Below are positions 2,461 to 21,326 of a stretch of 64,000 nt of DNA, piece by piece. The notes beneath the pieces were generated by a model, which did no database searches, was not told the DNA's origin, and worked only from the letters and a program-made list of their open reading frames with translations. Within the stretch, counting starts at the first letter, position 1; every line of letters begins with the position of its first letter. A program made the translations under genes and the position numbers. This DNA is from Diplonema japonicum (taxonomy: Eukaryota > Protista > Euglenozoa: Diplonemea), in contig OZ025762.1 of assembly GCA_964019335.1 (NCBI GenBank), positions 62,001 through 126,000 of the forward strand, written 5' to 3'.

Positions 2461-2521
2461 ATTATTATTATTATTATTTTTTTTTTTTTTTGCTGGAACA
2501 AGTAAACAAATTTTTGAAAAG

Positions 2522-2597
2522 AATTGTTATTGCAAAAAAGAGTAGAGGCAGCTTGTCCGTTTATCCCTACTGTAGGTGAAAACGGCTTGCACAAACA
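2522..2597. repeat. Dispersed repeat directly upstream of the YR-element gag ORF; near-identical inverted copy at 30639-30717, diverged copies near 53475-53550, 61510-61550 and 61775-61868
   Basis: AATTGTTATTGCAAAAAAGAGTAGAGGCAGCTTGTCCGTTTATCCCTACTGTAGGTGAAAACGGCTT matches the reverse complement of 30639-30717. Confidence 0.8.
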
Positions 2598-2604
2598 AAA
2601 CAAT

Positions 2605-3648
2605 ATGGCTTGCGCAGACATCGACCCGTCGGAGTTATCGGTTATACTATACCCGGAGGGGGCCCCCGCGGCGCCGGCGGACCCGGACTGTGCTGCCGGC
2701 TGCGACCGGGAGCACAAAACGGGGTTCCATTGCCCCCGATGTGGTTGCCTGGGCAACGAAGCGTGCCTCAAGCAGGTTCACAAAAGAGACGGAACGCACC
2801 TTCTAAAGGACCTGGGCTCCAGGGGTTGGATCTGCCCCCGATGTCTATGGGCGGTCCAGAAGGAGGGCGAACCTCTGGTGCTGCTGGGTTCCCCCGCTAG
2901 GGAGGAGAAACAGGCCCCCGTCCTGACGGAGGGGCTGATGGGCGCCTTCAGGGCATTCTTGAGCAGCCCGGGGGGGCTCAAGAGTCTGGGTCTCGCAGAC
3001 CAGGAGGGATCCTCCGACCCCGCAGGTCGAGGAGAAGGCCAAGCAGGCCTAGGAGGGGGCCAAGCAGGCCTGGAAGGAGGCCACGCAGGCCCAGGAGGGG
3101 GCCAAGCAGGCCTAGGAGGAGGCCACGCAGGCCTGGGAGGGGGCCAAGCAGGACTGGTGCCAGACGAGCTTCCGTACTCGGTGGACACCAGAAGAGTGAC
3201 GTTCTGGGTCGGACACGTCACACACGCCCATCTCAGACGTCAGCTCCTTGGAAACATCCGGACTCGCTACGGACCGATCCCGGAGGACGCCCGGGACACT
3301 GCGCGTGGACACGAACACGATGTTCGTAGGTTGTTCCGGTACCTGACGCAGATCTTCCCGCTCTTTGCCACGGTAGGGGAGGCCCTGTTTCCGCTGGCGC
3401 ACGATCTCATGGTCCAGCTGGAGTGTTGCCGTATCAGGGCTAAGGCTCCGGATCGCCAATCCGGCATGGAAAGGGCCTTGGTGTACGAGGAAAGGCTGGA
3501 AGGATTGGAATGGACGAAGGTTGATGGCAATGTCATCAGCGCCGCGGCTCGGCTGGCGGCGGCGGTAAAGTCGGAACCTCTTAGGTCAGAACCCTCAAAG
3601 AGACCGAATTACTTCCACGGTGGGGGTCCAAAAAAGGCGAGGCATTGA
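2605..3648 (+). CDS. gag-like ORF with N-terminal PHD-like Cys cluster and Gly-rich heptad repeats
   Basis: ATG at 2605; CAAGC...CPRCGCLGNEAC...WICPRC; GQAGLGG-type repeats; it is the first ORF of the element. Confidence 0.6.
   Translation: MACADIDPSELSVILYPEGAPAAPADPDCAAGCDREHKTGFHCPRCGCLGNEACLKQVHKRDGTHLLKDLGSRGWICPRCLWAVQKEGEPLVLLGSPAREEKQAPVLTEGLMGAFRAFLSSPGGLKSLGLADQEGSSDPAGRGEGQAGLGGGQAGLEGGHAGPGGGQAGLGGGHAGLGGGQAGLVPDELPYSVDTRRVTFWVGHVTHAHLRRQLLGNIRTRYGPIPEDARDTARGHEHDVRRLFRYLTQIFPLFATVGEALFPLAHDLMVQLECCRIRAKAPDRQSGMERALVYEERLEGLEWTKVDGNVISAAARLAAAVKSEPLRSEPSKRPNYFHGGGPKKARH
3037..3156 (+). repeat. 21-bp coding tandem repeat, ~5.7 copies, encoding G(Q/H)AG(L/P)(G/E)G
   Basis: GGCCAAGCAGGCCTAGGAGGG and variants in tandem. 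Confidence 0.9.
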
Positions 3649-5282
3649 CAGCTGACTCATCCACCATCCCTAACTCGTATCAATCAGAACAGTACTTCTC
3701 TAGCTCCCGTCAACGGTTCCCTCCCCCCGCTCGCTCCTCTTTTTCATTTATCAAAAACGTTTCTCACTCCCTCTGCGACTCCGAAAGGTCGGCCGCGATT
3801 AAACGACTATTCGATCGCGAAGGAGGAAGTGGGACCCCTACTACTGCAAACGCAAGAGTTCATGGGGACTTGCTACAAATCTCAAGACTCGGTGGTCTCG
3901 GTCCTTCGCAGGGGCCGGCAATTCGCGGAGCAGGTACGCAGATGGCATCCGACGATATCGGAGGAGGAGGCCTTCCTGCTATGGATAGAAAGGAAACGCA
4001 GTGCGGGGCAGATTTCCGCTTCCTCCGCACTACAGTACATGACTTACTGGCGGATGGGTCAGGTCGGCCCGACGGCAGCCTATCGTCGTTCCCTCCAAGG
4101 GAGACTGGAGGTTTTCAACCATCGCCTAGAAAGCCAGAGGATTCTGGTGTCACGGGAGCAGGTGCTCAGTGTGATCTCGTCCCCGCAGGACATGTTGACG
4201 GCTGCCCTGTCCTTGCAATGGAGCACGGCCGGTCGGTTCGTGGACGTAGAACGTCTTCTAATAGGGCACGTGTTCCCCCGCCCCGGGGAGACCTTGATCA
4301 TGCTGGTTGGCGGGAAGACCGACCGACAAGGGAAGGGTCAGGGGGTCGTGGTCCCGTCGGACGGAAACCTATTCGGGCCTGCGAAGCGGTGGATCGAAGG
4401 AAGGAAGCGGTCGGCTACACCGGACCGAAGGGTCTTCCCAACGATATCCCGCGTAGCGTACAACCGTTTCCTGATGAAGAGCTTAAACGTCACGGCTCAC
4501 GACATAAGACATGCGGCGTTGACTCACGTGGCGCGACGTCTGGGGGAAGGAGCGGCCCAGAGCATGGCTCGACACGCAGAGGCGTCTACAACGAGGTTAT
4601 ATATACCTCCCGAGACGTGGCAGGCGTCGGCGGAGACACGGGCGGGAGGCGCCAGCCTGCAGTGAGGTCTCAGCCGGCGGTGCCGCGTTGGCCGGTCAGC
4701 TTGACGGACGTGTTCAGAACCTATGATTATGTGGAGTCGTGGCTGGAGCTGGGTTCGAGTGTGCGGCTGCCGAAGGCGGCGTACATCGGTGAGGTCGACA
4801 GAATACCCACCTCCACGATCGACACGGATGGCTTGTTGCTCAGGTTCCCGAGGCTGGAGGGTTCTCTACGATGGTGGACGGACGTCCATTTCCTTAGAAG
4901 CGTGGTGAAGCAGTCCTTTAGGAAGTCTCCGGGTCCCCCTAACGAAAAGCTACGACCCCACGCACGTTCCCTCTGGATGATGGGTTTGACCGAGCCGTCA
5001 ACGAGGACCTCCGCCCCGTGGTATCACTCCGCGTTCACTGTCCCGAAGAAGGATCCCTCGAGGCTGCGCTTTATCCTTGCCTGCACGGACTTCAACAACG
5101 CTACTTTGGACGTGCCTCTGCCCAGCTGCAACCTGCCCGCATACCGGGACATCATCGCCGATCTAATGAGCTGCGAGTACTGCGCAGAGTACGATTTCCG
5201 CTCCTTTTTCTTCCAGTTCGGTTTACCGGAGGCGGTTAGGCCGTTCTTTTCCTTCCGAATCCGAGGCGCGGGGGACGACATG
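3645..5282 (+). CDS. Long ORF overlapping the YR gene and ending in an N-terminal reverse transcriptase domain; 3'-partial at the gap
   Basis: SAFTVPKKDPSRLRFILACTDFN and EYDFRSFFFQFGLPEAVRPFFSFR match the first LTR/DIRS-type RT motifs. Ns begin at 5283. Confidence 0.75.
3649..4665 (+). CDS. Tyrosine recombinase (start uncertain; frame is open from the gag stop codon)
   Basis: Catalytic signature: R (TAGRFVDV), K (GGKTD), HxxR (AHDIRH), H (MARH), Y (TTRLYIP). Confidence 0.85.
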   Translation, partial: QLTHPPSLTRINQNSTSLAPVNGSLPPLAPLFHLSKTFLTPSATPKGRPRLNDYSIAKEEVGPLLLQTQEFMGTCYKSQDSVVSVLRRGRQFAEQVRRWHPTISEEEAFLLWIERKRSAGQISASSALQYMTYWRMGQVGPTAAYRRSLQGRLEVFNHRLESQRILVSREQVLSVISSPQDMLTAALSLQWSTAGRFVDVERLLIGHVFPRPGETLIMLVGGKTDRQGKGQGVVVPSDGNLFGPAKRWIEGRKRSATPDRRVFPTISRVAYNRFLMKSLNVTAHDIRHAALTHVARRLGEGAAQSMARHAEASTTRLYIPPETWQASAETRAGGASLQ

Positions 5283-5482: not shown

Positions 5483-5605
5483 GGTTTGCGGGTTTGCGGG
5501 TTTGCGGGTTTGCGGGTTTGCGGGTTTGCGGGTTTGCGGGTTTGCGGGTTTGCGGGTTTGCGGGTTTGCGGGTTTGCGGGTTGGGTTTGCGGGTTTGCGG
5601 GTTTG
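5483..5605. repeat. (GGGTTTGC)n octamer tandem repeat, ~15 copies, at the gap edge
   Basis: Direct reading; one unit is shortened near 5578. Confidence 0.95.
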
Positions 5606-5634
5606 TTGGGGCGACCCCGGGATCAGCCCCGTCT

Positions 5635-5683
<49 letters not shown>

Positions 5684-5754
5684 AAGAAAAGAAAAATAAA
5701 AAGAAAATAAAAGATATATGAATTGAAGGGAGTCTTTGTGAGACGCTTTTTTAA

Positions 5755-6158
5755 GGGGGACTTGAGAAAATAAATAAAAAGGGGGACTTGAGAAAATAAA
5801 TAAAAAGGGGGACTTGAGAAAATAAATAAAAAGGGGGACTTGAGAAAATAAATAAAAAGGGGGACTTGAGAAAATAAATAAAAAGGGGGACTTGAGAAAA
5901 TAAATAAAAAGGGGGACTTGAGAAAATAAATAAAAAGGGGGACTTGAGAAAATAAATAAAAAGGGGGACTTGAGAAAATAAATAAAAAGGGGGACTTGAG
6001 AAAATAAATAAAAAGGGGGACTTGAGAAAATAAATAAAAAGGGGGACTTGAGAAAATAAATAAAAAGGGGGACTTGAGAAAATAAATAAAAAGGGGGACT
6101 TGAGAAAATAAATAAAAAGGGGGACTTGAGAAAATAAATAAAAAGGGGGACTTGAGAA
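5755..6158. repeat. 26-bp perfect tandem repeat GGGGGACTTGAGAAAATAAATAAAAA, 15.5 copies
   Basis: Unit starts at 5755, 5781, 5807 ... 6145 (390 = 15 x 26). No spacers. Confidence 0.95.
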
Positions 6159-6343
6159 TGTTTTTTTTTTTTTTTTTTTCTTCAAAAGACACACAAGGCA
6201 CGATAAATCTTAAGAGAAAATAAAAATATTCCAAAACAGACAATCAAGTTCCAACCTGGGAGGAAGGCATGGGTTTCTCTTTTTCTTTATGGGAGGGAGA
6301 GGGGAAGAAGAAGAAGCAACTCCAAATGATAAAAATTCAAAAA

Positions 6344-6395
6344 TAAAAATCTCAAAAAAGGCTTAAAAGAAGAAGAGGCAAATTCAAAAACATAC
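6344..6395. repeat. 52-bp direct repeat, left copy (candidate target-site duplication)
   Basis: TAAAAATCTCAAAAAAGGCTTAAAAGAAGAAGAGGCAAATTCAAAAACATAC, identical to 17160-17211. Confidence 0.9.
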
Positions 6396-6846
6396 TAGGG
6401 AGGAATGAGTGGGGCAGGGGGTAAAATTTAGGAGGGGGAAAGAGGGAGAATCAAAAAAGGGGAAAGGGGCAGAGTGACCAATGTCCATGCGAAAAAGCAT
6501 AGAGCGGGGGAAGAAGAAAATCAAAAACAGGAAAAACACATCACCACAAAAGAAAAAAGAAAAAAAAAAAAAAAACGTCGACCGAGATGGTTCCACTTCA
6601 AAAAGAAAAAGAAAAAGAAAAACAGAAAAATAAAAAAAAAAAAAAAAAAAAAGGAAAAACAAAAAGAAAAAAAAAAAAAAAGGAAAAAAAAAAAAAATCT
6701 AAGTGGTTCTATCTAGCCTGGCCGTTGTAGCACCTGTTCCTATTCTTTTATTTTTCCCTTTTTTTTTTCTCAGAAAAAAAAAAAAAAAAGTTTCACATCT
6801 TCCTATGGCGGGGGGGGGGAGAACAGCCCCCCACACCCCCGCTGGC

Positions 6847-9800
6847 CTATCTGGCCAGCGAGCCTTTGGACCTCTTCTTGTGGGGTATGGGCCCCACCCG
6901 TGCCCTCCCCGACTCGAGCTGCAGCCAAGCCACCGCACTGTTCACCGGGGCCCAGTTCTCCTTGTTGCGCACCTTGACCGTGTCCCGCACCAGGTCGTCG
7001 CTCCCCAGCTCTTCCATCAACCTGTGCTCCGCCAAGAACTTGAACTGGGGCCCGGTCATCCCCTTGAGCTCACCCCTGCATATGTTGGCTTCGACCACGG
7101 TGCCATCCGCCCCCGTACCCTTCAGATAGATGTAGCCACCCTCCACACAATCCGAGTCAGTACTGGCCGATCGGGCCCGGGCCCGCTTCTTGTCCTTCTT
7201 GCTCCACTTCAGCTCTTCCAGGGTGGGGAGGTCCGTGGCAACCACCTCAGGCCGCCTCTCCCTGTCTTCCTCCTTCTTCCGGGCCAACAGCCCAAGGTAC
7301 CTCTCAAAGGAGACGTCCTCGAACAACCCCGGGACCGTCACCACCGCTGACTGCAGGTCGACCTCTTCAACACCCATCTTCCGCAGATGGTCCTGGACAG
7401 TGCGCCTCGTCTCCTTCTCGCAGGGCCCCCTCCCCTCGTAGACGTCGAGGGTGACCTTCCTTCCATCCCTCACCCACGCCTTCACTTTGATCAGGTCCTT
7501 GACCTTTCCCACTGGGGCCCTTATCCTTGCGTCGCACCTCTCCAAGAACTCACGTAGTGTCACCTTGGTAGCGCCGGCTCCCGCCGCAATGCCCACTACC
7601 CCTTCCTTCCCCGGTGTCGGGTGGTGTCTGCACCCCCGGGTCTGCAACTTGACCACCCTCCATGCCGTTTCCAGAGTCCCCTTGAGCACGCCACCCTTGA
7701 AACGAACAGGTTGCACCGCCGAACACCCACACGCGTACGTGATCTGGAAATCCTGGACCGTCCTCGGGAACTCGAACTCGCGGTATGTTTCCGACTTCTG
7801 CACCTCACAACCCACAATGCGGCTGCGGCGCTCTCCGTCCGACCCACCTTCCAAGCTTGCGAAGTACTGCTTTACCATCATGTATCCAAGTCCAGCGATA
7901 CCAATCTGGCCAGCCATAGCCACCTCCAGTGGAACACCCAGCGACTCGGCCTTCGCAAGAAGCATCTCCTCAGTCCTCTCCCTTCCAGGGTCCGTTCCTT
8001 CTTCAAGGATGATCTCCACCCGGCCCTCGAACTGGATGATGAACTTGAGCAGTCGGTCCCCCGGCCTCGCCCTCAGTGGCACCATCGCTCTCGGAATTGG
8101 GATGCCCATCACCACATCAATCGGGTCAAGCTGAACGAAGTCTCCCCCTACTTCCACCTGCTGTTCCCTTTCCGGTGCCCCGACTCCCATCAGCTGATCT
8201 CCCTCCGGCGTCTGGATCCCACCCCTAGGTGTGTCAGGCCCCGACTGGCTGCCTCCGCTCGGTGCGTTCCCGCCCTCTTTGGTCCCTTCGGGGGCGTCAT
8301 CCGCCTGCGGCTTCAGAGTCCTCCCACCGCCCTGTCTCTTCGCAGCTTGTTCCCTACAGAATTCGCTCACGGTCATCTTCCTCGTAGCAGTTGTCGCACT
8401 CTGGTCCCCCTTGTTCGAGTCCCTCTGGGCCTCCGTATCCCCCTTAGGACACTGGTCCAAGGTCTGGTTCACCGCAGCGTCAGTCGCCCCTTGTCTCTTC
8501 CCATCTTCCTGGGCCTTCGGGTCAAGCTCCCCTCCCTGCCCAGCCCTCTCGCTGGATCCTGTTCCGACCATCTCCGTGTCTTCTCCTCCCGGCGAGGCTG
8601 CTTCGAGTCCTGCTCCCGCTTTCCCTTGTGTTCCACCCTCCACCGGTTCCGCCTTTCGCTGCTGCTGCATTCGGGCGTCCAGGTCCTTCTTCGTCTGCTC
8701 CAGAAGGGCATCCAGCTGGTGGGCCACCGTGATTGGGGGTCCGCCTCCCTGTCCCTTCACTTCCCTCTCGGACGACTCCTCAGCTTCGGTGGTTTTTTCA
8801 TTGCCGAAGGAGTCCTCTGTGAGGTCAGTGTTGGATTCAGTGTTGGGTTCGTTGTTCGCTTCCTCGTTGTCCTTTTTTTCCTCTTCGCCGTCCGGTACCG
8901 GGGGCCCTGGATCCAACTGTACAGGCCCTTTGACTAACAGCGCCCCTGCTATCGATCTCATCATGGCCGTTGACACCTCTTGGACCACACGCCTGTGTAT
9001 CGAGACTCTGTCCCCGTGAGCCCGCGCAGCTATGCTCCTGGACAGTTTCTTCGTGAGGTAGACTGCTGCCTCCCCGAACCCCCCAAAGGTCTCCATCGCG
9101 AAAGGTACAAAGGCCACGCGTGTCTTGGCGAGCTCCGCCTCATACTTCTGGCGCTTGTAGTGTTCCGCCTTCGCCGCTGCGTATCCCGCAGTCTTCGCCG
9201 CCTGGTTGACACAAGACTCGTTCCTCGGGTGCACGATGACCACGTCCATAGCCATTGGGCGGGAACCCCCCACCCCACCTGGGAAGAACACGTCCGCCGG
9301 GCGCTGGGACGACCCCGGGATCAGCCCCGTCTTCTCCATCGTTGCGCTCACCCCGGCCCACTGACAGTGTCTGTGGATGGTCTCCTTCACCCGGTCGTGC
9401 CTCGCAATCCTGGCGTTGCCGCATCCCTGGGCATGGTCACCCCATACGTCCATCCCCTCAGTCTTGCACCTCGGGTCGTGGCAGCTCTCACCCTGCTTGT
9501 AGACCGGAGCCCCCAACCACCACTTGATCAGAGCCCCAAACTCGTTGTCCGACAGCTGGTTGTAGAAGTCAGGCGTCGCCGTCAACCACGCTCCCGCATA
9601 GTGCATTGACTCCGACATCAACCTCGCTCTCGAGCGTGCATCTGCTTTCGCCAAGAGGTCCTCCAGCGCCTTCTCATCAAGCACCCTAGAGAGCCACCTC
9701 TGGCTGCAGATGTGGGGGGCCTTGGCCACCATGTCGGGTGTAATCTGCATGCCGCCCTTCGTCCTGTTGAACCACTCGAGCCAGCTCCCCCATACACCCC

Positions 9801-11120
9801 CTTCCAGCCCATGTTCGTATTTGGGATCCAGCTCCTTGCACAGCTTCATCGTCGACGCCCTCGAAGCCATGTTGGCCGCGCGCAGGTGCTCCTGGCAGCT
9901 CCTCATCCCAAGCCCACCGACTTTTACGGACAGTTTCGCCTGCTGCCATTCTTTCGACCCGTTCTCGAACTGCATGCCGCACACCTTCGACATCGTCTTC
10001 CGCACCATCTCGTCGAACCTGTGCATGACCCCTCCCACATGCGAGTCTGGGACCACTCTCATGTAAAACACCAGTTTGCTGTATGAGCTGCAATACCGGA
10101 GAAGTGTGTACCCTGTCTGCCTCCCCACCTTGGTCAGCATGTCGAAGTTCTCTTCCAGCGCGTCCAAGCGTTTGTTCAGAAAGGCTTGCGTGTACTCCGG
10201 CGATCCTATCGGCGCCCCCAGGAGCATGAAGTTCCTCTCTTTGTGGAAATTCTCTTCTGTCAGGCCATCGAAGCCTGTGTCCTCCACTGTCTGGGGGAGG
10301 TCGCCACTAACCCATATGAGCTCGCACTTCTGGGGTTTCACTTTCAGCCCTATCATTCCGCTCAGCTCACACAAGATGTTGTACGCCTTTCTCACTTCAT
10401 CCACATTCCCCACAAGGACGCCATCGTCCAGGTAGAACTGGAGGATGTCCAGGTTGCAGTCTTCACTTATCTTGTTCACCAGGGGTTGGATGGCCAGAGA
10501 GAACAGCAGCGGTCCCATCGGGTCCCCCTGTTGCACCCCTTCCTGGGACTTAATCACCTTTCCGTTGTAGTATAATTGGGAGGGCACCCTGTAGCACCAA
10601 TCGGCCCACGCATACAGCCCCGACGCTTGCTCATAGGCCTGTGAGCACAGCTGCCTCCGACAAACACTGTTGAAGGCGTTGGCGTAGTCGATCTTGAGGA
10701 TCACCTTGTTTTCCTGCTTGTTGCCCCGTTCCCTGTCCACATACTGCCTGATGGTGTGTATAGCCGCCTCCATTCCAGCAGGGACCGATACCCCCACCTG
10801 GCCGCCTTTCTTCAGGTACGAAGAGGCCACTTCCGGAGCGATCTTCTTCACAAGGGATTTCCCCACCAGCCGACGCAGCACATCCCCAACGGCTATGGGC
10901 CGCACGTCCCTGTCGTTCTTCTTGAGGGCCACAAGGTTCGCCCCTGCCATCAGCGGAGCCACCTCCCTAGGGGCCGTGCCTCTAGCTAATGCGTTGACTG
11001 CCCTCGTCACCGACATCAAACAGCCTTGAGACTCAAAAGCTCCGTCCACCGCGTCCTTGATGTGCTGGGCTCTCAGACCAGTCGGTCCCGCAGCAGTCCC
11101 CCTCGGGAAGTCCCTGATTG
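6847..11120 (-). CDS. Retroelement polyprotein, C-terminal part: RT, CCHC, restriction-like endonuclease and ~690-aa extension
   Basis: ORF track 6847..11217. The first ~32 aa of that ORF are an out-of-frame product of the duplication junction at 11121-11124. Confidence 0.85.
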
Positions 11121-12841
11121 CGTCTTCTCCATCGTTGCGCCCACCCCGGCCCACTGACAGTGTCTGTGGATGGTCTCCTTCACCCGGTCGTGCCTCGCAA
11201 TCCTGGCGTTGCCGCATCCCTGGGCATGGTCACCCCATACGTCCATCCCCTCAGTCTTGCACCTCGGGTCGTGGCAGCTCTCACCCTGCTTGTAGACCGG
11301 AGCCCCCAACCACCACTTGATCAGAGCCCCAAACTCGTTGTCCGACAGCTGGTTGTAGAAGTCAGGCGTCGCTGTCAACCACGCTCCCGCATAGTGCATT
11401 GACTCCGACATCAACCTCGCTCTCGAGCGTGCATCTGCTTTCGCCAAGAGGTCCTCCAGCGCCTTCTCATCAAGCACCCTAGAGAGCCACCTCTGGCTGC
11501 AGATGTGGGGGGCCTTGGCCACCATGTCGGGTGTAATCTGCATGCCGCCCTTCGTCCTGTTGAACCACTCGAGCCAGCTCCCCCATACACCCCCTTCCAG
11601 CCCATGTTCGTATTTGGGATCCAGCTCCTTGCACAGCTTCATCGTCGACGCCCTCGAAGCCATGTTGGCCGCGCGCAGGTGCTCCTGGCAGCTCCTCATC
11701 CCAAGCCCACCGACTTTTACGGACAGTTTCGCCTGCTGCCATTCTTTCGACCCGTTCTCGAACTGCATGCCGCACACCTTCGACATCGTCTTCCGCACCA
11801 TCTCGTCGAACCTGTGCATGACCCCTCCCACATGCGAGTCTGGGACCACTCTCATGTAAAACACCAGTTTGCTGTATGAGCTGCAATACCGGAGAAGTGT
11901 GTACCCTGTCTGCCTCCCCACCTTGGTCAGCATGTCGAAGTTCTCTTCCAGCGCGTCCAAGCGTTTGTTCAGAAAGGCTTGCGTGTACTCCGGCGATCCT
12001 CCACTGTCTGGGGGAGGTCGCCACTAACCCATATGAGCTCGCACTTCTGGGGTTTCACTTTCAGCCCTATCATTCCGCTCAGCTCACACAAGATGTTGTA
12101 CGCCTTTCTCACTTCATCCACATTCCCCACAAGGACGCCATCGTCCAGGTAGAACTGGAGGATGTCCAGGTTGCAGTCTTCACTTATCTTGTTCACCAGG
12201 GGTTGGATGGCCAGAGAGAACAGCAGCGGTCCCATCGGGTCCCCCTGTTGCACCCCTTCCTGGGACTTAATCACCTTTCCGTTGTAGTATAATTGGGAGG
12301 GCACCCTGTAGCACCAATCGGCCCACGCATACAGCCCCGACGCTTGCTCATAGGCCTGTGAGCACAGCTGCCTCCGACAAACACTGTTGAAGGCGTTGGC
12401 GTAGTCGATCTTGAGGATCACCTTGTTTTCCTGCTTGTTGCCCCGTTCCCTGTCCACATACTGCCTGATGGTGTGTATAGCCGCCTCCATTCCAGCAGGG
12501 ACCGATACCCCCACCTGGCCGCCTTTCTTCAGGTACGAAGAGGCCACTTCCGGAGCGATCTTCTTCACAAGGGATTTCCCCACCAGCCGACGCAGCACAT
12601 CCCCAACGGCTATGGGCCGCACGTCCCTGTCGTTCTTCTTGAGGGCCACAAGGTTCGCCCCTGCCATCAGCGGAGCCACCTCCCTAGGGGCCGTGCCTCT
12701 AGCTAATGCGTTGACTGCCCTCGTCACCGACATCAAACAGCCTTGAGACTCAAAAGCTCCGTCCACCGCGTCCTTGATGTGCTGGGCTCTCAGACCAGTC
12801 GGTCCCGCAGCAGTCCCCCTCGGGAAGTCCCTGATTGCGTC
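11121..12841 (-). pseudogene. Tandem duplicate of 9328-11124 (RT/thumb region) carrying a 76-bp deletion
   Basis: The offset between copies is 1793 bp before and 1717 bp after the deletion junction at ~11997-12000. ORFs 11073..11960 and 11969..12982 repeat the peptides of the 6847..11217 ORF. Confidence 0.9.
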
Positions 12842-12864
12842 CAGCACTTCTTCTGGCAAGACTT

Positions 12865-15800
12865 CTACCGCTTCCTTCGTCTTCGCCGGGTTGTCCCATT
12901 GGGGGTGTAGTGGCTCTGGATGTTTGCTCTGCAGCGGGCTACAAGCGCCGCGTTTCCTGCCGAGAACCTCCCTTTGCTGCACAGTTCCGTGGCCCTGGCG
13001 ACCTTAGAGACCTCGTCGTTCTTAGGTTCCCCCTTCTCACCTGATTCCAGCTTATTCCAGAGGGCCATGTAATTTCCCTTCTCCCACTCCTCCAATCTGG
13101 CCTGGACACTCAGCTCCGTCTCCTTGTCCCGCTTCTTCCCTCCCCTCTTCTTCCACAGGCAGGCTTTGGGGAGCATCGCCACCAGCAGCCAAGCCTCCTC
13201 TGTGTTGTCCTTCACCGCTCGGCCCAGAGTGTGCTTAAGGGTAAGCCCCCACAGTCTTTGAAGGCTCGTCGGGATCGACCCCATGGTCGTGACGTTCATG
13301 GCGGCTATGGTTTCCAGGCTGGGTAACTCGGTCCTCGTCGGGGCCGGCGGGGGGGTCGTGTATTCCCCTTCCCTTCGCACCGCCTTTTTGCACTCGTCGT
13401 GGCACCCCTGACCCTTCCACACACAGCCCCTGCACACCAGGCACCTCTCGAGGTCCAGTCTCCTCAGAACGCTCTCCGGGATCTCATCACTCTCCAGGTG
13501 CCCATCCAGGTGACACTTCCATACCCTTGTCGAGTTGAACGGGGTCGTGCTTTTGCACTTCGACCTAGCGCAGTTCGCCACCGGACAGTACAGGAATTGC
13601 TGGTTCCTTGCCCCCATCTGGTCCAACACCCCTGCCTTCCCGTATCCAGGGATCGCACGGTCTATTATGTCCCACTCCCCGATGTCCTCACCCGGGGCCT
13701 CGGAGGGTTGCTTACCTGCCTTTTGTAGAGCTACCGATTGGGACTCATCAAGGAGCATCATCATCGACTCCTCCTCTCCGACTGCATACTCGTAGTGGTT
13801 GCCGTTGTACGCCAGCACCACCACCTTCTCGTGGTCGGAGTTGTACTCCCCTATCATCAGGACTGGGTTGTTCCCCCCAGCAACCACGAGTATCGTGCGG
13901 CCAAACGCTTGTGCTGCGGCTGCCAGGCACAAGTGGTCTCCCCACGTCGCTGCTGTGCCCATCCCTTCCAAGTACCGGTCCCAACCCTCACTGCAAAACG
14001 GGGCATAGTGCTCCTCCCGGTGTTTCATCCATTCTACAACCTCGCTCCTGATGTGGGTGTGGTCGCCGTAGGCTTCCCCGAGCGAACCGGCCAGGGCGTG
14101 GAACATGCAGTTCCCGTCCTTCTCCGTCGATCTCCTCGTCAGCTTGAAGCTCTTCATGATCTCGTCCACTGACTTGCCGGCCCTGGGTTGTTTGTCGGGG
14201 TTCCACAGATTCCGCTGCCTGTGTAGTGCACAGTGCGTCTGGTTCGACGAGCACGCCGCAGCACACGTTCCACAGAGGTTCACCTTCATGCTCCTCGCCT
14301 GCTCTTGTTTCACAAAATGATGGTGGACCGCATTGAGGTGTTTAACTAGACAGCTTGCCACACTGGTGCGGAAAGAGCAGTCTTCCATCCGGCATTGATG
14401 TTTGTCTGATCCTTCTTTTTCCCCCTCCTTCTGCGCCTCCATGTGCTCATCATCCAAATCCATGGGGGGAGGGTCACCACCTCCTTGCAACGCGTCCCCT
14501 GCCAGCGTCAAGTCCGCAAAGGGGTCCAGGTGTTCGGCCTGAAAGAGCTTATCCTCCGTCTCAGCTCGTTCCTTCGCCGCTTGCTTGGCGTCCTCCTTCT
14601 TTTTTCTGCGTCTTGAGCTTCTAGGCGGGCCCAAGTACACCGGCCGGTAGTGACCTCTCGATCCGCGTCTTGTCTTCTTCAGCTTTACCGGTCCGAATCT
14701 CTGGGTCGGGCCAGCACCAGCTTTCCCCACCATCACTTCCACCATGGCCCAGAGCGACATCAGCCCCCCTATCCAAACTGAAGTGCTTCCCACCAGAGTG
14801 CCCCCTACCGCTAGCCAAGCGAGCTCCCCGGCGGACCATTCATCCCCTCGGGGCCCCACCTGTACCCTTGACCTGCGGGTGGTCCTCCTGTCGCTCCCCG
14901 GCCTCTTCCACAACACTGCCGCATGCAGGAAGGAGGGGGCCATCCCGATGCCCGCCCCCAGCACCTGCCTCACCCCTGGGATCAGCAAGAGGGAGAACAG
15001 GGCGACCCAGGCCCACGCCCCCAGGTGCTCCCATCTCACCCCTTCCTTGCTGTGTCCCGTCCGTCTGCGGTGCCTCCTTGTGCCGGTTGCAGCCCCAGGT
15101 GCCGGGATTCTGGGTGCCAGGGGTTGGGCTCCAGGCGTTCCCACCTCGGTCCGCTTCAGCCCCATTGCAGGGTCATCTGGCTTCTGTTCCAGGGCGGCCT
15201 CGTGTTCCTCTCTGCGGGCCCTCCTCCTCCCTTCTTTCCTCGCACGACGGTGCCTTTTCTTCTCCTGTCTGGCAGCCTCCCTCGCCCCCTCCCTCGCCTT
15301 GGTCCTCTTCTCCCGACGCCTCTGAAGGGCCGTTTCGCTCCTGTGCCTCCTCCTGTTCTTCTTCCGCTTGGGCGCTGGCTTAGGTTCCCTGCCACCCATG
15401 GCAATCCAGGGGGCTCTTTTCTGTCTTCTCACAAGGGTGTGCAGTGGTGCTCTCACGTCGCTCGCAGCCTCCGCCCCAACCACACCTTGGCGGGCGGTGG
15501 GGGTGGGTGCTGGGTCCCCCTGGTTGTTTGAAAAGAAAAAAGGTTCCTCCTTGTTTGTTTTTTTTTTTTCTTTCCCTTCCACCCTCAAAAAAAGCCCCCG
15601 GCCCTTGGGGACCAGGGTGTACACCTCCGTAGAGGGTCCAGAAAAAATGGGGGGCAGAGAGGGAGGGGCACTACCTTCTCTCGGGCGTGCTGTCTCTCCC
15701 TCTGCCTTTTTTTCCTCCGAAGAGGGTCTGTTTTTCACCTCCGTGGAGGGTCCCTCTGGAGAGGGCTCTATAAAAGAAAAAGGGGGGGACGAATGGGGGG

Positions 15801-16947
15801 GAGGAGCACCACCCTCTCTCGGGAGTGCCACCTCTTCCCCTTTCTCTCTATTTTCCTCCGAAGAGGGTCTGTTTTCCTCCGAAGAGGGTTCTAAAAAAAA
15901 AAGGGGGGCGGGTGGGGCACTATCCTCTCTTGGGAGTGCCACCCCCCCTTGCCCACAAAAAAGGGGATCTAAAAAAGGGGGTTCGTCTGTTAACCCAGGG
16001 GATGGGTCTTCCTGGGGTGTGCGGGTGAGCTTGGGGCCTACCGCACGCAGGGTGATCGACACCCTGACACCAGTGGACATCCCGGACGGGATGTGGTGCG
16101 TCCATTGGTGTCTCGCTTCACCTTCCAACAATGCCCATGAGAAGGGGGGCACCAGGTATTTCGCCACCCTGTCCCCCCTCCTCATGACCATTGTGGTCTC
16201 GGCTCCGTACGAGAGGACTAGGACAATCGGTCCCAGCCTCGCGTCGTCCTTGTGGGCGGCAATCCCACAACCAGACTTGTACTTGTTGACAAGTACCTGG
16301 TTGGGGACCACCTCGAGCCCTGCGGCGGCGGCCACCTCCCTCACCCACCCCTCCGCCCCCCCTGGGATCCCCGTGGTGGGGCGCACCTTGGCGTTCGTCC
16401 CCTCCCACCGGTACCCGTATTGGAGGGTCTCCCTCCCTGAGTTCCCAGACAGGGCCTCCCACTTTCCTGAAAGCAGGGCTTTCGGGAAGGCAGGGGCCGG
16501 GCCCGTCCTCAACCCGGGAGGGTGTTCACCATACACCAGTACCCACCCCTTTTTTTCTCCCTCTTTTCTTCCCTCTTCAACAATAGCAGGGTCGGCTGCA
16601 GGGGTCGTGGTCGCGGCGGTCGTGGCTGCGGCAGGGGCGGCTGCGGCGGTCTCAGTTGCGGCGATCAGGGCGGCAGGGTCGGCTGCGGCGTTCAGGGCGG
16701 CTGGGGCGGCCGTGGCTGTAGCAGCGGCGGTCAAAACCGCGGTCTCTGCTAGTGATTTTTTTATTTTATTTTTTTTTTCTAAAGGGGGGTGGGGGGATCT
16801 AGGGGGTGGGGGTGGGGATTCATACTGCCCAACCAGATAGTCTGGTTGGGTCGGCCCTGGCGTCGTGTGCAGCCTGGCGGCCTGTCGGGGTTCCTTCTCC
16901 CTGCGGTTTGCGCGGTCACCTCCTCTTGCGTTCCGTCTTGGATCCAT
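12865..16947 (-). CDS. Retroelement polyprotein, N-terminal part: AlkB-like dioxygenase, hydrophobic segments, Zn fingers, OTU-like protease; frameshifted from RT near 12940
   Basis: AlkB: NQVLVNKY..GIAAHKD..WTHHI..RVSITLR. OTU: DGNCMFHAL..WGD..NHY. C2H2-like CRMEDC..HLNAVHH. The pre-RT motif RATELCSKGRFSAGNAAL continues in another frame as LQSKHP. Confidence 0.85.
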   Translation of the reverse strand: MDPRRNARGGDRANRREKEPRQAARLHTTPGPTQPDYLVGQYESPPPPPRSPHPPLEKKNKIKKSLAETAVLTAAATATAAPAALNAAADPAALIAATETAAAAPAAATTAATTTPAADPAIVEEGRKEGEKKGWVLVYGEHPPGLRTGPAPAFPKALLSGKWEALSGNSGRETLQYGYRWEGTNAKVRPTTGIPGGAEGWVREVAAAAGLEVVPNQVLVNKYKSGCGIAAHKDDARLGPIVLVLSYGAETTMVMRRGDRVAKYLVPPFSWALLEGEARHQWTHHIPSGMSTGVRVSITLRAVGPKLTRTPQEDPSPGLTDEPPFLDPLFCGQGGVALPREDSAPPAPLFFLEPSSEENRPSSEENREKGEEVALPREGGAPPPHSSPPFSFIEPSPEGPSTEVKNRPSSEEKKAEGETARPREGSAPPSLPPIFSGPSTEVYTLVPKGRGLFLRVEGKEKKKTNKEEPFFFSNNQGDPAPTPTARQGVVGAEAASDVRAPLHTLVRRQKRAPWIAMGGREPKPAPKRKKNRRRHRSETALQRRREKRTKAREGAREAARQEKKRHRRARKEGRRRARREEHEAALEQKPDDPAMGLKRTEVGTPGAQPLAPRIPAPGAATGTRRHRRRTGHSKEGVRWEHLGAWAWVALFSLLLIPGVRQVLGAGIGMAPSFLHAAVLWKRPGSDRRTTRRSRVQVGPRGDEWSAGELAWLAVGGTLVGSTSVWIGGLMSLWAMVEVMVGKAGAGPTQRFGPVKLKKTRRGSRGHYRPVYLGPPRSSRRRKKKEDAKQAAKERAETEDKLFQAEHLDPFADLTLAGDALQGGGDPPPMDLDDEHMEAQKEGEKEGSDKHQCRMEDCSFRTSVASCLVKHLNAVHHHFVKQEQARSMKVNLCGTCAAACSSNQTHCALHRQRNLWNPDKQPRAGKSVDEIMKSFKLTRRSTEKDGNCMFHALAGSLGEAYGDHTHIRSEVVEWMKHREEHYAPFCSEGWDRYLEGMGTAATWGDHLCLAAAAQAFGRTILVVAGGNNPVLMIGEYNSDHEKVVVLAYNGNHYEYAVGEEESMMMLLDESQSVALQKAGKQPSEAPGEDIGEWDIIDRAIPGYGKAGVLDQMGARNQQFLYCPVANCARSKCKSTTPFNSTRVWKCHLDGHLESDEIPESVLRRLDLERCLVCRGCVWKGQGCHDECKKAVRREGEYTTPPPAPTRTELPSLETIAAMNVTTMGSIPTSLQRLWGLTLKHTLGRAVKDNTEEAWLLVAMLPKACLWKKRGGKKRDKETELSVQARLEEWEKGNYMALWNKLESGEKGEPKNDEVSKVARATELCSKGRFSAGNAALVARCRANIQSHYTPNGTTRRRRRKR

Positions 16948-17119
16948 TTTTTATTTTTTTTATTTTTTTTTAAAGTGTGTGTTGGGGGAGGGGATCCTTT
17001 CGGTAAGCGGCGGGCAGGCCGACAGGCAAAACAACCCCCCCGGACGACGGCGACGACGGACGACGGACGCAGCAGCAAACCCAGGCAGAGGCGGCAGGCA
17101 CCAGCAGAACACGAACGAC

Positions 17120-17158
17120 CAATAAAGTACAGAAACTGTAGCTTTAGAATCGTTGGTT
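17120..17158 (-). ncRNA. Spliced-leader (mini-exon) sequence, 39 nt, forming the 5' end of the retroelement
   Basis: The minus strand reads AACCAACGATTCTAAAGCTACAGTTTCTGTACTTTATTG. The 39-nt length and the 3' half CAGTTTCTGTACTTTATTG match kinetoplastid/diplonemid SL exons, and the AACCAACG start resembles the diplonemid SL as I recall it. Confidence 0.92.
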
Positions 17159-17159
17159 T

Positions 17160-17211
17160 TAAAAATCTCAAAAAAGGCTTAAAAGAAGAAGAGGCAAATT
17201 CAAAAACATAC
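17160..17211. repeat. 52-bp direct repeat, right copy (candidate target-site duplication)
   Basis: Identical to 6344-6395; it begins 1 nt beyond SL position +1. Confidence 0.9.
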
Positions 17212-18629
17212 AATTGAGCAACGGTCACAACGAAAGCGGATACACAGCACAGGGGGGAACCACGCACACACCAGTTACCTTACCCCCTCCGACCATCAAG
17301 GCATACCAAGGACAGGGCGAATGGGTAACAGGGCCCGCTCTAAATCTAGCCCCGGCAAGGTTCACACACACACACACACACCACAGCTTGGGTACCTCTC
17401 ACATTAGTTTCAGCCGAAGCTTACTTACAGGGGACGCCACGTGAAGGCTGTGAGTTGGATTTTGTCCCCCAAGTCCTCCATTGCTCCAGCTGATCATCCC
17501 TTCACCATGCCAAGGCGAGGACTTCCCACGAAAGTCTAGAGCATGCAGAAGCCCGCCCACAGGTGTCACAACGTCGCCGCCACGCGAACCGTGCCGTACT
17601 TCGAAGCCAGCACACAGCCTGTTGCGTCAGCTGTGCTTGTCACCGTCATCAGGGCATCCGAAGCACTGTCATGCCACTTGCCGTCGAAGTCATCGCACCC
17701 TGCAGTCACTACACTGGCAGCCACCACGTGGGACATCGACTCGGGGTTAGTCGAGGATGTGATGATGGTATCGCGCAAGTGATAACATCATCGAAGGTGA
17801 GGGTCTACCACTGACCTTCTGAGCGACCACTGGTATGGTGGCTAAAAGCCCCCTAAGCAACATCATCGTTATGAAACTGTGAAGATTGGGATGCAAAAAA
17901 AGTAATGGAAGAAAGATAATAACCCATGTCAAGCTACATGATCTTCTTAGAGAGGGAAAAGGGAAGCATGGTCCGAGACCTGCCGGTAACCAGTCGATAG
18001 CGCGGTCGCGTGCCCTCTTCGCAGGTTTTTCACACTTCGGTTTGGTCCTGGCAAACGATGCAAAGAGATTTCACAAACGGCCCGTGGCCTTCCCGGCACC
18101 AAGGCAAAAGTCACAATAATCGGACAAAAAAGGAGGACTTGAGTGATGACATCCATGCTGTCACCCTCGCGGACGTCACCCCAATTCTCTTTTCAACTTG
18201 GTCTAAAAGTAGCGGATTTTGGGATCTTTTAACGTGACATAGCCCGAATTAAAACAGGAATAAAAAAACAAAGTTCAGACAAGGATGAAGTAATAAGAAA
18301 GAACACAAGTAACAAGTCAAACAGCAGCAAAACAAGCACACGACATTATACTGGACAGAATAACTTCTTTTTAAAAAACAGAGAGGAAGAAAAATATAGA
18401 GAAGAAAAAGTGAGGAACTGAGTATATTCACGCTCGACTTCCATGGCCACCGTCCTGCTGTCTAGATGAACCGACACCCTTTGTGGGATCTGATGAGCGA
18501 CCACTCGGACACCTTAAGTCAGCTCTCGGTTCATTCCACATTTTATCATTAATTGCGAATGGAGAAAGGGGAAAGAAGCAATGCTTCTAACTGAATCGGC
18601 ATCAAATCGCCAACAAAAAAAAAAGAAAC

Positions 18630-20480
18630 CTAAACGACTGTCAATGGGCACCTTGATCGTTGACTCCCGTGCATGTCTCTCTGTCCCGCAGGAGCATAAC
18701 TCATTCGTGTGTAGAAGGGTAAGCCATGACCGATGCTCAAGTAATGCGGATCACATACAGGACTTGAAGTGCCATCCCGCAGTTCCATTGTCTGACCTGT
18801 ATTACTAACTGAAATGACCTTCATGTCAGGGATCACCTTTAGCTCAATATCCCCATCGCCATTGTCAGGAATGACAGCTTTGTAGGTTTCGTACTTCGGA
18901 AAAAGGCACGCAAAGTGGGTGAGCTCCTCAAAAAGATCCCGCCGCGTCTCGCTTGCATCGTCGTAGACACCGATGTAGGTGCTGATGATGATGTGCAGAA
19001 CCACATCCACGAACACCACCTTCGACACAAACATCCCTGCCAGCGTCTTCGTGATCAGCCTCGCAACGTACAACGGGGTCAGCAAGTTCTTCACCACCGC
19101 CACCCCCTGTGCCTTCAGAGCTATCAGATGGTCAGCCATGTAAATGCCCATTACAAGAAACCCAAGGCCAAGTACCTGCAGGACTGCAGCGACACGTGCA
19201 ATCCGTGTCATCAGCAAGTATGCCTCCTCACGTGTCACCGCCCGAAGCAGCTGTTCAGAGTACACCAAGAACAACCCCATGCTGGCGGTGATGAGGACAG
19301 CCGTGACCATCACAGGAACCGTCCCCACCACCACAAGAAGAAGGGCCATGACGCACATCACAATGGGAAGTGCCGAGGCCTGCAAGATGATCAGCATCCA
19401 CGAGGTCACACGGACACCAGGGAACATCAGCTTCGACATCTTCAAACCGCCCTGAAGACCAAGCATCAGGCCCAGAACACCAGGGGCAAGTGACTTCAGT
19501 GCTTCTACAGCACCCACGAGGAAGGGGAGGTAGATGATGTATCTCAAGAGGAGGCCCACAAAAGTCAGTACGAACTGGGACAACGATGTATCCCCACTGG
19601 CGGTGTCAATGAGCTGGAGACTGCCCGTTACTGTGCTCGTCATGTCTTCAATGTGCTCGCTGCACACTTCCTTGACATCCACAGTCTTACCGTCAAGCTG
19701 CAGCTCAACTCCGATGACGGCGTAGACCTTGTTGATGACCTTGAGGCTGTACATGCACAAACCCTGGACCTTCTCCTTGGGGGAGACGATGTCCATCCAG
19801 GGGACGAAGAAGTAGATGAAAGGGAGGAAGAAGACAAGGAACCAGCCGAAGGAGACAAGGCGGATGCTTCGTGTATATGATGACCACCTCCAGGCGGAGG
19901 CGGAGTAGAAGACGATGGCGATGATGGTTTGAACAAATGGGAGGAACTGAAGCAGCTGCTCCTTGGCCCTTTCCCTCATTTGATACGAGTCATCCGAGAC
20001 ATTGCTCTTTTCAGCTGCTACACCGAAGGCATCCTCGTTGTTCAAAGTTACGATGTCAATGACAAGGACTATCAGGTAGAGAAGCACGCTGGTGTTAAGC
20101 TGCGACCGCCGCCAGGCGAGGTACGTCTGTGAGATAAGAGGAATATCTGTGCCAAATACAGCAGCCGTCATGTCGTACTCAGAAGTCTCAACGATCACCT
20201 CGCTAAGATCTGTCTTCATGAGCCTGCTGGGTCTGGGCACCTGTAACTTTAGATTGTCTAAGAAAGCTGCAGGGTAGAGAGTTCCATTGAAGTAGCACAG
20301 ATACACCAGCAGCGTGGTAACACCAATCAGGAAAACTCCTAGAAAGATGTAACCAAGATACGACAGCGCGGCCTTATCGATATAAATATCTGGTGTGGGT
20401 GTTGTCTCCTGCTGTGCAGCCCCCAAGCCCGCGAACAAGCACACCACTACAACAATCACGTCCCACGGCGCAATGCGCAT
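18630..20480 (-). CDS. Multipass membrane protein, unnamed family, copy 1 (616 aa)
   Basis: Signal peptide, many hydrophobic helices, family motifs YLAWRRSQLN and GLQGGLKMSKLMFPG; upstream TTTTCCAG acceptor 7 nt before the ATG. Confidence 0.9.
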   Translation of the reverse strand: MRIAPWDVIVVVVCLFAGLGAAQQETTPTPDIYIDKAALSYLGYIFLGVFLIGVTTLLVYLCYFNGTLYPAAFLDNLKLQVPRPSRLMKTDLSEVIVETSEYDMTAAVFGTDIPLISQTYLAWRRSQLNTSVLLYLIVLVIDIVTLNNEDAFGVAAEKSNVSDDSYQMRERAKEQLLQFLPFVQTIIAIVFYSASAWRWSSYTRSIRLVSFGWFLVFFLPFIYFFVPWMDIVSPKEKVQGLCMYSLKVINKVYAVIGVELQLDGKTVDVKEVCSEHIEDMTSTVTGSLQLIDTASGDTSLSQFVLTFVGLLLRYIIYLPFLVGAVEALKSLAPGVLGLMLGLQGGLKMSKLMFPGVRVTSWMLIILQASALPIVMCVMALLLVVVGTVPVMVTAVLITASMGLFLVYSEQLLRAVTREEAYLLMTRIARVAAVLQVLGLGFLVMGIYMADHLIALKAQGVAVVKNLLTPLYVARLITKTLAGMFVSKVVFVDVVLHIIISTYIGVYDDASETRRDLFEELTHFACLFPKYETYKAVIPDNGDGDIELKVIPDMKVISVSNTGQTMELRDGTSSPVCDPHYLSIGHGLPFYTRMSYAPAGQRDMHGSQRSRCPLTVV

Positions 20481-21326
20481 GTTGTAACTGGAAAATGGTT
20501 AAAATCAAGAAATAAGATAATAGAAAGTACGTTTGAAAGCGTCATAAGAAAAAAGACGAAGAACCAAAAGGCTATATCTCCACCACCTCGAATACCCTCC
20601 TCTCCTAAATCGTGCTGTCGCTACGTTTAATCGCCTTGCGGAGAAAAACGTCGACAGGTCAAAAATAGGAGAAATACAAGAGAAAACAACGAGGGGGCTA
20701 AGATGAAACCAGGGAAAACAAACATGACAAGACGGAGCGGGGCTTACGTCTTCGTTTCTTTTTTCTTTTAATCCTTTTTTAAATCTCATTTCTTCTTCTT
20801 TTCTTTTTTTGAGTCGTTTTCTTCTTTCTCCCTCCCCTCACCTGCTTCTTCTTTTCTTTCTTTTTCACTTCTCTTCTTTTTCAACTCCCGTTCGAACCCA
20901 TCTCCCTGCTGTCGCAGCAGACGAAAAACATGGAAAAGGAAAGATTGGAACGGAAAGAACAAGGAGAACATTAAAGGAGCACATGCAAAGTGCCTTTTCC
21001 AAAAAAAGGAAGAAGAAAAGGGGGGAGGAAAAAAGAAAAAGGAGTTACGACAGAGGGTAAGAAAAGAAACAATAAAGAGAGAGAGAGAGAGACGGGAAAA
21101 GGGAGAAGGAGAGTAGGGAGGAAGTCAGCGTCTTATTAAAGCAAGATTCATTTTCTCGTGGAAGTGAACCCAAAGAGAAAAAGAGGGCAACAAACACAAA
21201 AAATATTCCGACTTTTTCGATTCCAAAACCACGAAGCACAAACAAGAATGAGAAAGAATCAGTTTTCTTTTTTTAAAACTACCCTTCCTTCTTACCACCC
21301 CCCTCCAGTGAAACGTGATCTCTTCT

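Follow-up and report, generated by a model that had tools for sequence, protein, structure and literature searches.

How does a retrotransposon polyprotein come to include both an AlkB-type dioxygenase and an OTU-type cysteine protease, and what might it do with them? The question is raised by a CRE/SLACS-like element of the kind without long terminal repeats (non-LTR) on the minus strand of Diplonema japonicum contig OZ025762.1 (assembly GCA_964019335.1). It lies within the 64,000 nucleotides from position 62,001 to 126,000 that we analysed and call the window; all coordinates below are window positions (Table 1). The architecture is real and conserved, and on this known kind of element it has apparently not been described before, each of its accessory modules having precedents in other mobile elements. 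Two long minus-strand open reading frames, 16947-12865 (1,360 residues) and 11229-6847 (1,460 residues), are separated by two broken reverse transcriptase (RT) frames. With 37 missing bases restored (see below) the intact frame comprises 8,418 bases, or 2,806 codons, and encodes, from N to C terminus, AlkB, a basic tract, zinc fingers, OTU, further zinc fingers, RT, a CCHC finger, a restriction-like endonuclease and a long tail. An earlier, sequence-only reading of this DNA had proposed just such a frame of about 8.4 kb for a polyprotein of about 2,800 residues with AlkB and OTU, and a second species has it too.

The three profiles expected by that reading are all recovered by Pfam: 2OG-FeII_Oxy_2 (PF13532, E 1.5e-13, residues 168-301) and OTU (PF02338, E 3.2e-12, residues 944-1049) in frame 16947-12865(-), and RVT_1 (E 1e-16) in frame 11229-6847(-). 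The AlkB domain retains its catalytic set (N221, Y223, H232, D234, H284, R295 and R301, forming the HxD...H iron triad, N-x-Y and RxxxxxR), and the Asp-x-x-Cys and His loops of OTU are intact (D944, C947, H1051). Among structures in the PDB, AlkB is closest to ALKBH8, a tRNA wobble hydroxylase (1.8e-9), followed by ALKBH3 and ALKBH2 at 0.01-0.05 (best single values 0.013 and 0.019) and E. coli AlkB at 0.06-0.1; the NCBIfam AlkB model scores 21 bits against a cut-off of 267. The OTU domain matches human OTUD5 (3.3e-6) and OTUD3 (4.6e-6). Hydrophobic segments had also been proposed ahead of OTU; a single such stretch has a Kyte-Doolittle mean of at least 1.6 (residues 641-659), and it is weak in the window copy, at 1.68 against 2.32 at the matching place in Diplonema papillatum. 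The Pfam scan gave no match to the C2H2 finger and second Cys/His cluster (14227..14394), nor to the CCHC-endonuclease region, 95-100% of which is covered by relatives. The tail has no stops in its frame, against 22 and 23 in the other two minus-strand frames, and its GC content at third codon positions is 0.735; Pfam, PHROG and relative searches gave no match to it, and the linker regions are likewise without relatives among stored proteins. PHROGs matched none of three proteins and Rfam gave 0 matches. Single-sequence structure models reached a predicted local distance difference test score (pLDDT) of 35.7 for AlkB, which is unusable, and 40 for the tail.

The breaks in the frame were compared over 11060-17400 with contigs from four public runs, each of a different study (X1, X3, X4 and X9); one of these runs may be the window's own source, and depth in them is not copy number. 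The frameshift that had been suspected near 12940 is a 37-base deletion at 12936. Read by hand, the 37 restored bases contain no stop and encode a GLAEDN motif, which D. papillatum proteins P0003 and P0273 also have at the same spot. A programmed frameshift at this point is rejected, given the 37 extra bases in other contigs and the matching residues in D. papillatum. The first RT copy also lacks 76 bases at 11997-12000, which are present in the X1 and X9 contigs that bridge the site; neither deletion occurs in an X1 contig of 3,003 bases that extends from a point upstream of OTU through RT. Both breaks are private damage of the window copy, because the run contigs have the 37 bases and no 76-base gap. 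Depth covers 30 of 30 bins in X1, X3 and X4, and 29 in X9. X3 yielded 309 contigs (48 at 90-95% identity) and X4 yielded 334 (49 at 90-95%), and these many contigs at such identity fit a multi-copy family.

The doubled RT region has a different cause. Positions 12841-11997 recur as 11124-10280 (845/845) and 12000-11121 as 10207-9328 (878/880), in total 1,717 bases. The sequence-only reading had set this aside as a 1717-bp duplicate; the repeat itself is there, but the poly(A), 7-base target duplication and 5' microhomology make a nested insertion more likely than a simple duplicate. Directly after the poly(A), 25 of 25 letters match the element where the older copy breaks off (11121), a sequence with two occurrences in the window, both on the minus strand. 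R2-type elements use target-primed reverse transcription: their endonuclease nicks the target, and RT copies the RNA starting at its poly(A) end. It is likely that a 5'-truncated copy (11124-5637) was inserted in this way into an older full-length copy. An assembly duplicate is disfavoured by the poly(A), the target duplication and the 25-base continuation; the window's own nested junction was seen in none of the four runs. The younger copy sits in the endonuclease region of the older one, and the rest of the older copy is lost at an array of 8-base repeats and a scaffold gap. No target duplication of the older copy, whose 3' end is missing, is recognisable. An element end had been placed at 6396; the 3' end is instead the poly(A) at 5679-5637. 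The 52 bases ahead of the leader, a copy of part of the 3' untranslated region (UTR), lie between 3' UTR flanks in contigs of all four runs (with loose ends at 17160 and 17211). Their interpretation as a target duplication is rejected on account of these flanks and the lack of poly(A) at 6396, and they are likely the result of a template jump or a captured fragment. The history of the locus would begin with the insertion of a full-length copy, which would have lost 37 and 76 bases before the 5'-truncated younger copy interrupted it.

The sequence-only reading held that a one-off chimera would undo its proposal. Two proteins of D. papillatum, P0273 (KAJ9442719.1, 2,635 residues) and P0274 (1,964 residues), carry AlkB, OTU and RT in the same order, each as a single predicted protein, and have the basic tract, hydrophobic segment and zinc fingers at the same places; since a second species has the same protein, and on several contigs, a one-off chimera is removed from consideration. 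Their OTU matches (E 8e-4 and 6e-4) do not reach Pfam's cut-off, and the catalytic Cys and His are present. Altogether, this AlkB with its catalytic residues occurs in six D. papillatum proteins, encoded on six contigs that differ in length. These element-borne AlkBs (P0133, P0136, P0140, P0273, P0274 and P0281) were deposited as tRNA methyltransferase, hypothetical protein and like names. Between the species the AlkB domains are 38.5% identical over 135 residues, with HxD, H and RxxxxxR in both, and the RT-endonuclease regions about 40% (39% to P0003, 45% over part to P0021). A search of 1.84 billion representative proteins gave 1,424 AlkB matches to 1e-3 and none to 1e-30; three of the best 150, which were inspected, are from D. 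papillatum, and P0273 and P0274 are their cluster mates. A profile built from short AlkB matches found the domain in five of 156 proteins (153 RT relatives or cluster mates and three pieces, many of them fragments), all five from the window or D. papillatum; none of 69 further cluster members has it. Among 769 long candidate proteins, a search with the D. papillatum AlkB that requires shared five-residue words picked out one, from its own cluster. On this distribution, a single gain of AlkB would likely account for both species.

What kind of element is this? It has the CRE-like layout of one frame with N-terminal zinc fingers, a central RT and a C-terminal CCHC finger and endonuclease (the last recognised by its motifs only), as well as a 43-base poly(A) and, at the younger copy, a 7-base target duplication. 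R2 structures are the top PDB matches of its RT, at a far distance (2.3e-7), and its best named relatives, from D. papillatum, bear the automatic name SLACS (E 7e-146). The earlier assignment to CRE/SLACS-like elements is sustained by domain layout; the strict SLACS/CZAR/CRE1 trait, a fixed site in spliced-leader RNA genes, is shown by neither window copy. In an IQ-TREE analysis of 38 rows, the window, three D. papillatum rows and six deubiquitinase-bearing relatives form one clade (99/98), the base of which is not resolved. A FastTree RT tree was made from 143 rows after 11 short ones had been dropped; both trees place the element among its relatives without named CRE1, SLACS, CZAR, Cnl1 or NeSL references. 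The element's RT had no match in 64 metagenome contig stretches.

The two accessory enzymes seem to have separate histories. N-terminal OTU-like domains also occur in P0285, P0286, P0007, P0313 and P0364, and on a separate branch in P0066 and P0114; several sister-family tails hold second OTU-like or USP domains, and some OTU-like copies are without the usual Cys loop. Deubiquitinase carriage is therefore likely old in this branch, to judge from the domain survey, with AlkB a probable addition seen only in the window and D. papillatum. Six related CRE-like proteins (P0364, P0372, P0282, P0113, P0286 and P0313) have two deubiquitinase domains, either OTU and USP or two OTU-like. In this accessory-rich branch P0364 and P0372 additionally carry two RNase H1 N-terminal (hybrid-binding) domains. 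P0298, a distant RT relative of 2,111 residues, contains an adenine methyltransferase domain of the Dam type (E 1e-6). The closest relatives of the element's AlkB, among the best 150 of the 1,424 matches, are small stand-alone proteins of 28-48% identity. This type also occurs in IMG/VR contigs, which with P0124 as query gave 14 loci, three of them named GVMAG (giant-virus genomes), none of whose AlkBs groups firmly with the element AlkB in the domain tree; P0127 as query gave no locus, and the window AlkB occurs in none of five viral contig stretches. No grouping in the domain tree names a donor.

In carla- and foveaviruses an OTU domain stands behind AlkB, and the sequence-only reading had proposed convergence with such plant positive-strand RNA viruses. 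This holds only as an analogy, and the two modules were not acquired together, because sister elements have OTU without AlkB. Plant-virus AlkBs are described as resembling group 1B bacterial AlkB and ABH2/ABH3 (PMC2553587; here and below, works cited by PMC number are drawn on in part), and when the viral side is taken from that description the element AlkB is not nearest to this group. A plant-virus origin of AlkB and OTU is unsupported: the AlkB is ALKBH8-like, the OTU is like OTUD5 and OTUD3, and the only replicase-length proteins among the best 150 of 1,424 AlkB matches and among the 769 long candidates are from D. papillatum. Since the AlkB is ALKBH8-like and the OTU of cellular type, the likeness to plant viruses would be convergence, with no kinship found as far as tested.

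The 5' end of the older copy begins with a complete 39-base spliced leader, of which 37 letters agree with the leader named 'Euglenozoa 14'. We take this to be a diplonemid leader, which is consistent with D. papillatum as the species that supplies the best named relatives. It is listed in PMC3795323. The copying of a leader-bearing RNA is the best explanation for a leader that is complete yet stands apart from its gene, and the leader was probably acquired by trans-splicing. A possible but clearly less likely origin is a variant of SLACS/CRE targeting, in which master copies would lie immediately behind the exon of spliced-leader RNA genes and owe their transcription to the leader promoter. 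The leader-junction evidence is that of the run rows listed, beside which 160 more loose ends exist. Ahead of the leader, X4 and X9 have other sequence, likely the upstream region of the leader gene, and once in X9 a different sequence starting with GT, likely the leader intron, comes after it; the window has neither. A second 5' UTR variant in X3, X4 and X9 shares the leader and about 10 bases (loose end at 17108). Low-depth joints in X3 and X4 connect the leader (17119-17157) to inner sites at 15574, 15609, 14410 and 13796; these are likely truncated copies behind the leader and new leader-headed copies inside old ones. The leader-gene origin can draw on the GT directly after the leader, on two 5' UTR variants with one common junction and on the lack of an AG acceptor ahead of the inner sites of these joints, but the window leader is preceded by the 3' UTR piece and not by the upstream sequence of X4 and X9. 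The younger copy, moreover, landed inside an element, and the 745 members of the D. papillatum SLACS orthogroup (PMC10161547, supplement) fit dispersal.

We favour, with rather better than even confidence, the view that both enzymes act in cis: to judge by their domains, AlkB would strip methyl groups from the element's own RNA and OTU would strip ubiquitin from its own protein. The element RNA would receive the host spliced leader, most likely by trans-splicing, and would be translated as a single 2,806-residue protein, which would bind the RNA that encodes it. Tethered in this way, AlkB would clear base methylation, either host-written N6-methyladenosine (m6A) or 1-methyladenosine (m1A) and 3-methylcytidine (m3C) damage, which if uncleared would make the RNA less stable or cause RT to stall along some 10 kb. 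The OTU, from the wider deubiquitinase-bearing branch, would shield the protein-RNA complex from ubiquitin-dependent turnover. A bolder version, which we think improbable, concerns the leader cap. Trypanosome leaders carry cap-4-type base methylations that block base pairing, and AlkB might erase such marks on the host's leader cap so that RT copies the trans-spliced RNA to the leader's very end, where this copy does end; in this version a diplonemid lineage of non-LTR retrotransposons would also be the first in which an eraser of RNA marks and a deubiquitinase are fused to RT.

Several observations weigh against action of AlkB in cis, or against so general a role for it. Near full-size relatives of 2,567-2,840 residues do without AlkB, so it is dispensable for transposition. 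Its nearest relative is ALKBH8 and not the ALKBH5-type m6A erasers, so m6A need not be its substrate. In the main X9 contig of the AlkB region R301 is replaced by His (depth 19.3 of 19.3), a change not in X1, X3 or X4, and two aromatic lid residues are altered as well; because of these changes, not every lineage's AlkB need be active. The AlkB domains of the two species are not sisters in the poorly resolved domain tree, and the sister relation of the window and D. papillatum, joined at 0.918 by FastTree, is not resolved by IQ-TREE. None of the contigs listed from the four runs joins AlkB to RT; the link comes from the window and D. papillatum.

An alternative that we regard as unlikely, though the strongest for AlkB and OTU, has AlkB act on DNA (new complementary DNA, the target site or nearby chromatin), removing N6-methyladenine (6mA) or alkylation damage such as m3C so as to evade silencing linked to methylation, while OTU would act at the nick on proteins of host repair or of chromatin. 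Both domains are tethered to the integrating enzyme, D. papillatum has 5-methylcytosine (5mC) methyltransferases and base J enzymes (PMC10161547), and OTU and Ulp1 domains have been proposed to act on repair factors during transposition (PMC2836005), but the match to the DNA-repair enzymes ALKBH2 and E. coli AlkB is weak (0.02-0.1) and the mobile-element AlkBs that have been assayed favour RNA (PMC9289625, PMC2553587). We give still less credence to an AlkB that works in trans like ALKBH8, on tRNA wobble uridines or other host RNA or protein, and tunes translation of the long element protein while OTU cuts the polyprotein into modules. It is true that ALKBH8 is the best solved relative (1.8e-9), that NCBI named two D. 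papillatum copies after the ALKBH8/Trm9 enzyme, and that AlkB and RT are set apart by a hydrophobic segment and by long linkers of low complexity. Unlike ALKBH8, however, the element has no RRM or methyltransferase domain, the closest relatives of its AlkB are small stand-alone proteins, some on giant-virus contigs, no cleavage site was identified and the OTU is of the cellular type. It seems very unlikely that AlkB is passive cargo, captured once without benefit, or that the fusion is an assembly chimera. The altered R301 of X9, sister families without AlkB and the broken window copy next to a scaffold gap would suit such a view; against it, the same order recurs in two species with AlkBs of 38.5% identity that retain all catalytic residues, and independent contigs repair both breaks. 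Between the window and X9, moreover, silent changes are in excess in the AlkB region, where 16 of 26 listed differences are silent and 16 of 26 fall at third positions (ratio of nonsynonymous to synonymous change, pN/pS, 0.22, p 1e-4), a figure from part of a longer table with 42 further rows, without correction for transition bias. Action of AlkB on the element's own RNA, and of OTU on its own protein, thus stays our preferred explanation.

Several known systems share parts of this design. CRE1, CRE2, SLACS and CZAR (PMC12278014) have, like the window element, a single frame, zinc fingers, RT, endonuclease, poly(A), target duplication and a link to the leader; unlike them, it has AlkB, OTU, a 690-residue tail, a length of about 2,800 residues and a whole leader, and neither of its window copies lies at the fixed leader-gene site. 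The parts of that trypanosomatid survey consulted contain 0 mentions of AlkB or OTU. The D. papillatum 'SLACS 132 kDa' proteins (KAJ9442719.1, KAJ9464152.1 and cluster mates) have the same order, including basic tract, hydrophobic segment and tail, and differ in their RT-endonuclease (about 40% identity) and their automatic names. Ty3/Gypsy elements of Phalaenopsis are also AlkB-bearing retrotransposons, and their AlkB has m6A demethylase activity, but they are of the LTR type and have a separate, ALKBH5-type AlkB open reading frame and no OTU (PMC9289625). NeSL and Utopia-1_TSP likewise belong to the endonuclease-type non-LTR elements and carry at the N terminus a cysteine protease that acts on ubiquitin-like modifiers, but this protease has the Ulp1 and not the OTU fold, AlkB is lacking, and they belong to another clade (PMC4640811). 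The replicases of Flexiviridae, Closteroviridae and their kin have AlkB upstream of the polymerase in a polyprotein, and plant-virus AlkBs repair RNA (PMC2553587); these replicases have another AlkB subfamily and an RNA-dependent RNA polymerase, whereas the window element has a cellular-type OTU, about 640 residues from AlkB, and an RT. Ginger1, Helitron and Mutator carry OTU, Ulp1 or USP domains, but are DNA transposons without AlkB (PMC2836005). In the literature searched, which took in few subscription papers and neither Repbase nor Dfam, we met with no report that places AlkB in the polyprotein of a non-LTR element and no paper that joins AlkB or OTU to CRE-like non-LTR elements; the one AlkB-retrotransposon paper concerns the orchid. 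The D. papillatum genome paper reports SLACS RTs and, apart from them, 'a dozen' AlkB-type genes read as host regulators, and its main text does not describe the AlkB and OTU architecture (PMC10161547).

Table 1. Element features and the two nested copies in window coordinates
Feature	Position	Strand	Evidence or remark
52-base copy of own 3' UTR (6344-6395), ahead of leader	17160..17211	-	100% identical
Complete 39-base spliced-leader exon	17120..17158	-	37/39 letters = 'Euglenozoa 14' leader; sole copy in window
5' UTR	16948..17119	-	leader to first ATG
N-terminal polyprotein part, 1,360 residues as present	12865..16947	-	out of frame past deletion at 12936
AlkB-type Fe(II)/2-oxoglutarate dioxygenase, ALKBH8-like	16045..16446	-	Pfam PF13532 E 1.5e-13; alignment; best PDB match ALKBH8
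Moderately hydrophobic segment downstream of basic tract	14971..15027	-	Kyte-Doolittle mean 1.68
C2H2-type finger and second Cys/His cluster ahead of OTU	14227..14394	-	read from translation; cysteines retained in D. papillatum
OTU cysteine protease (deubiquitinase-type)	13789..14118	-	Pfam PF02338 E 3.2e-12; C947 and H1051 present
Zinc-finger pair ahead of RT	13405..13587	-	from translation
37-base deletion, frame shift in older copy	12936..12937	-	X1 and X4 contigs contain the bases; X3 and X9 show them at loose ends
RT region of older (host) copy, 76-base deletion at 11997-12000	11121..12841	-	
Younger 5'-truncated copy within older one	5637..11124	-	4-base microhomology at 5' junction
RT core, QQGDP and YLDD	10312..10923	-	Pfam RVT_1 E 1e-16
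CCHC finger and restriction-like endonuclease, motifs RHD, PADV, DV, KY, ETFG	8920..9483	-	motif positions by eye
C-terminal tail, about 690 residues, open	6847..8919	-	no recognised domain
3' UTR, U-rich tracts and 26-base x 15.6 tandem array (5753-6158)	5680..6846	-	
Poly(A) tail, 43 bases	5637..5679	-	
7-base target duplication (also 11121-11127) and 18 further host-copy bases	5612..5636	-	= element sequence at insertion site

Other repeats and genes surround the element. The array of 8-base units that abuts the cut end of the older copy (5483-5605, 15.8 copies) has the wrong orientation for a chromosome end, and in D. papillatum P0021 a truncated RT is followed by a peptide encoded by the same array; the array may belong to the tail of a different mobile element or may be a repeat that is shared. 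On the plus strand, 2518-5282 encodes, in three successive frames, gag-like and tyrosine-recombinase-like (Phage_integrase E 0.0086) sequences and the start of an RT (RVT_1 E 7e-4), cut by an N gap, and is likely a TATE/VIPER-type element. A gene with multiple membrane spans and no Pfam match is present at 18630-20498 and at nine places in 35500-63500, these ten copies being 70-98% alike and mostly in tandem. Positions 26516-27601 hold an array of a 102-base unit, the 34 codons of which would suit ankyrin-size repeats.

For the annotation of D. papillatum, the six AlkB-bearing proteins belong to the element and may make host AlkB genes seem more numerous than they are. The finding extends the capture of AlkB by RNA-replicating parasites, seen in plant viruses and in an orchid LTR element, to an endonuclease-type non-LTR element with a different AlkB subfamily, within a CRE-like branch that as a whole retains one or two deubiquitinase domains. 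It suggests that hosts among the euglenozoans control retrotransposons through RNA methylation and ubiquitin, an idea that is testable in D. papillatum because the same element is present there.

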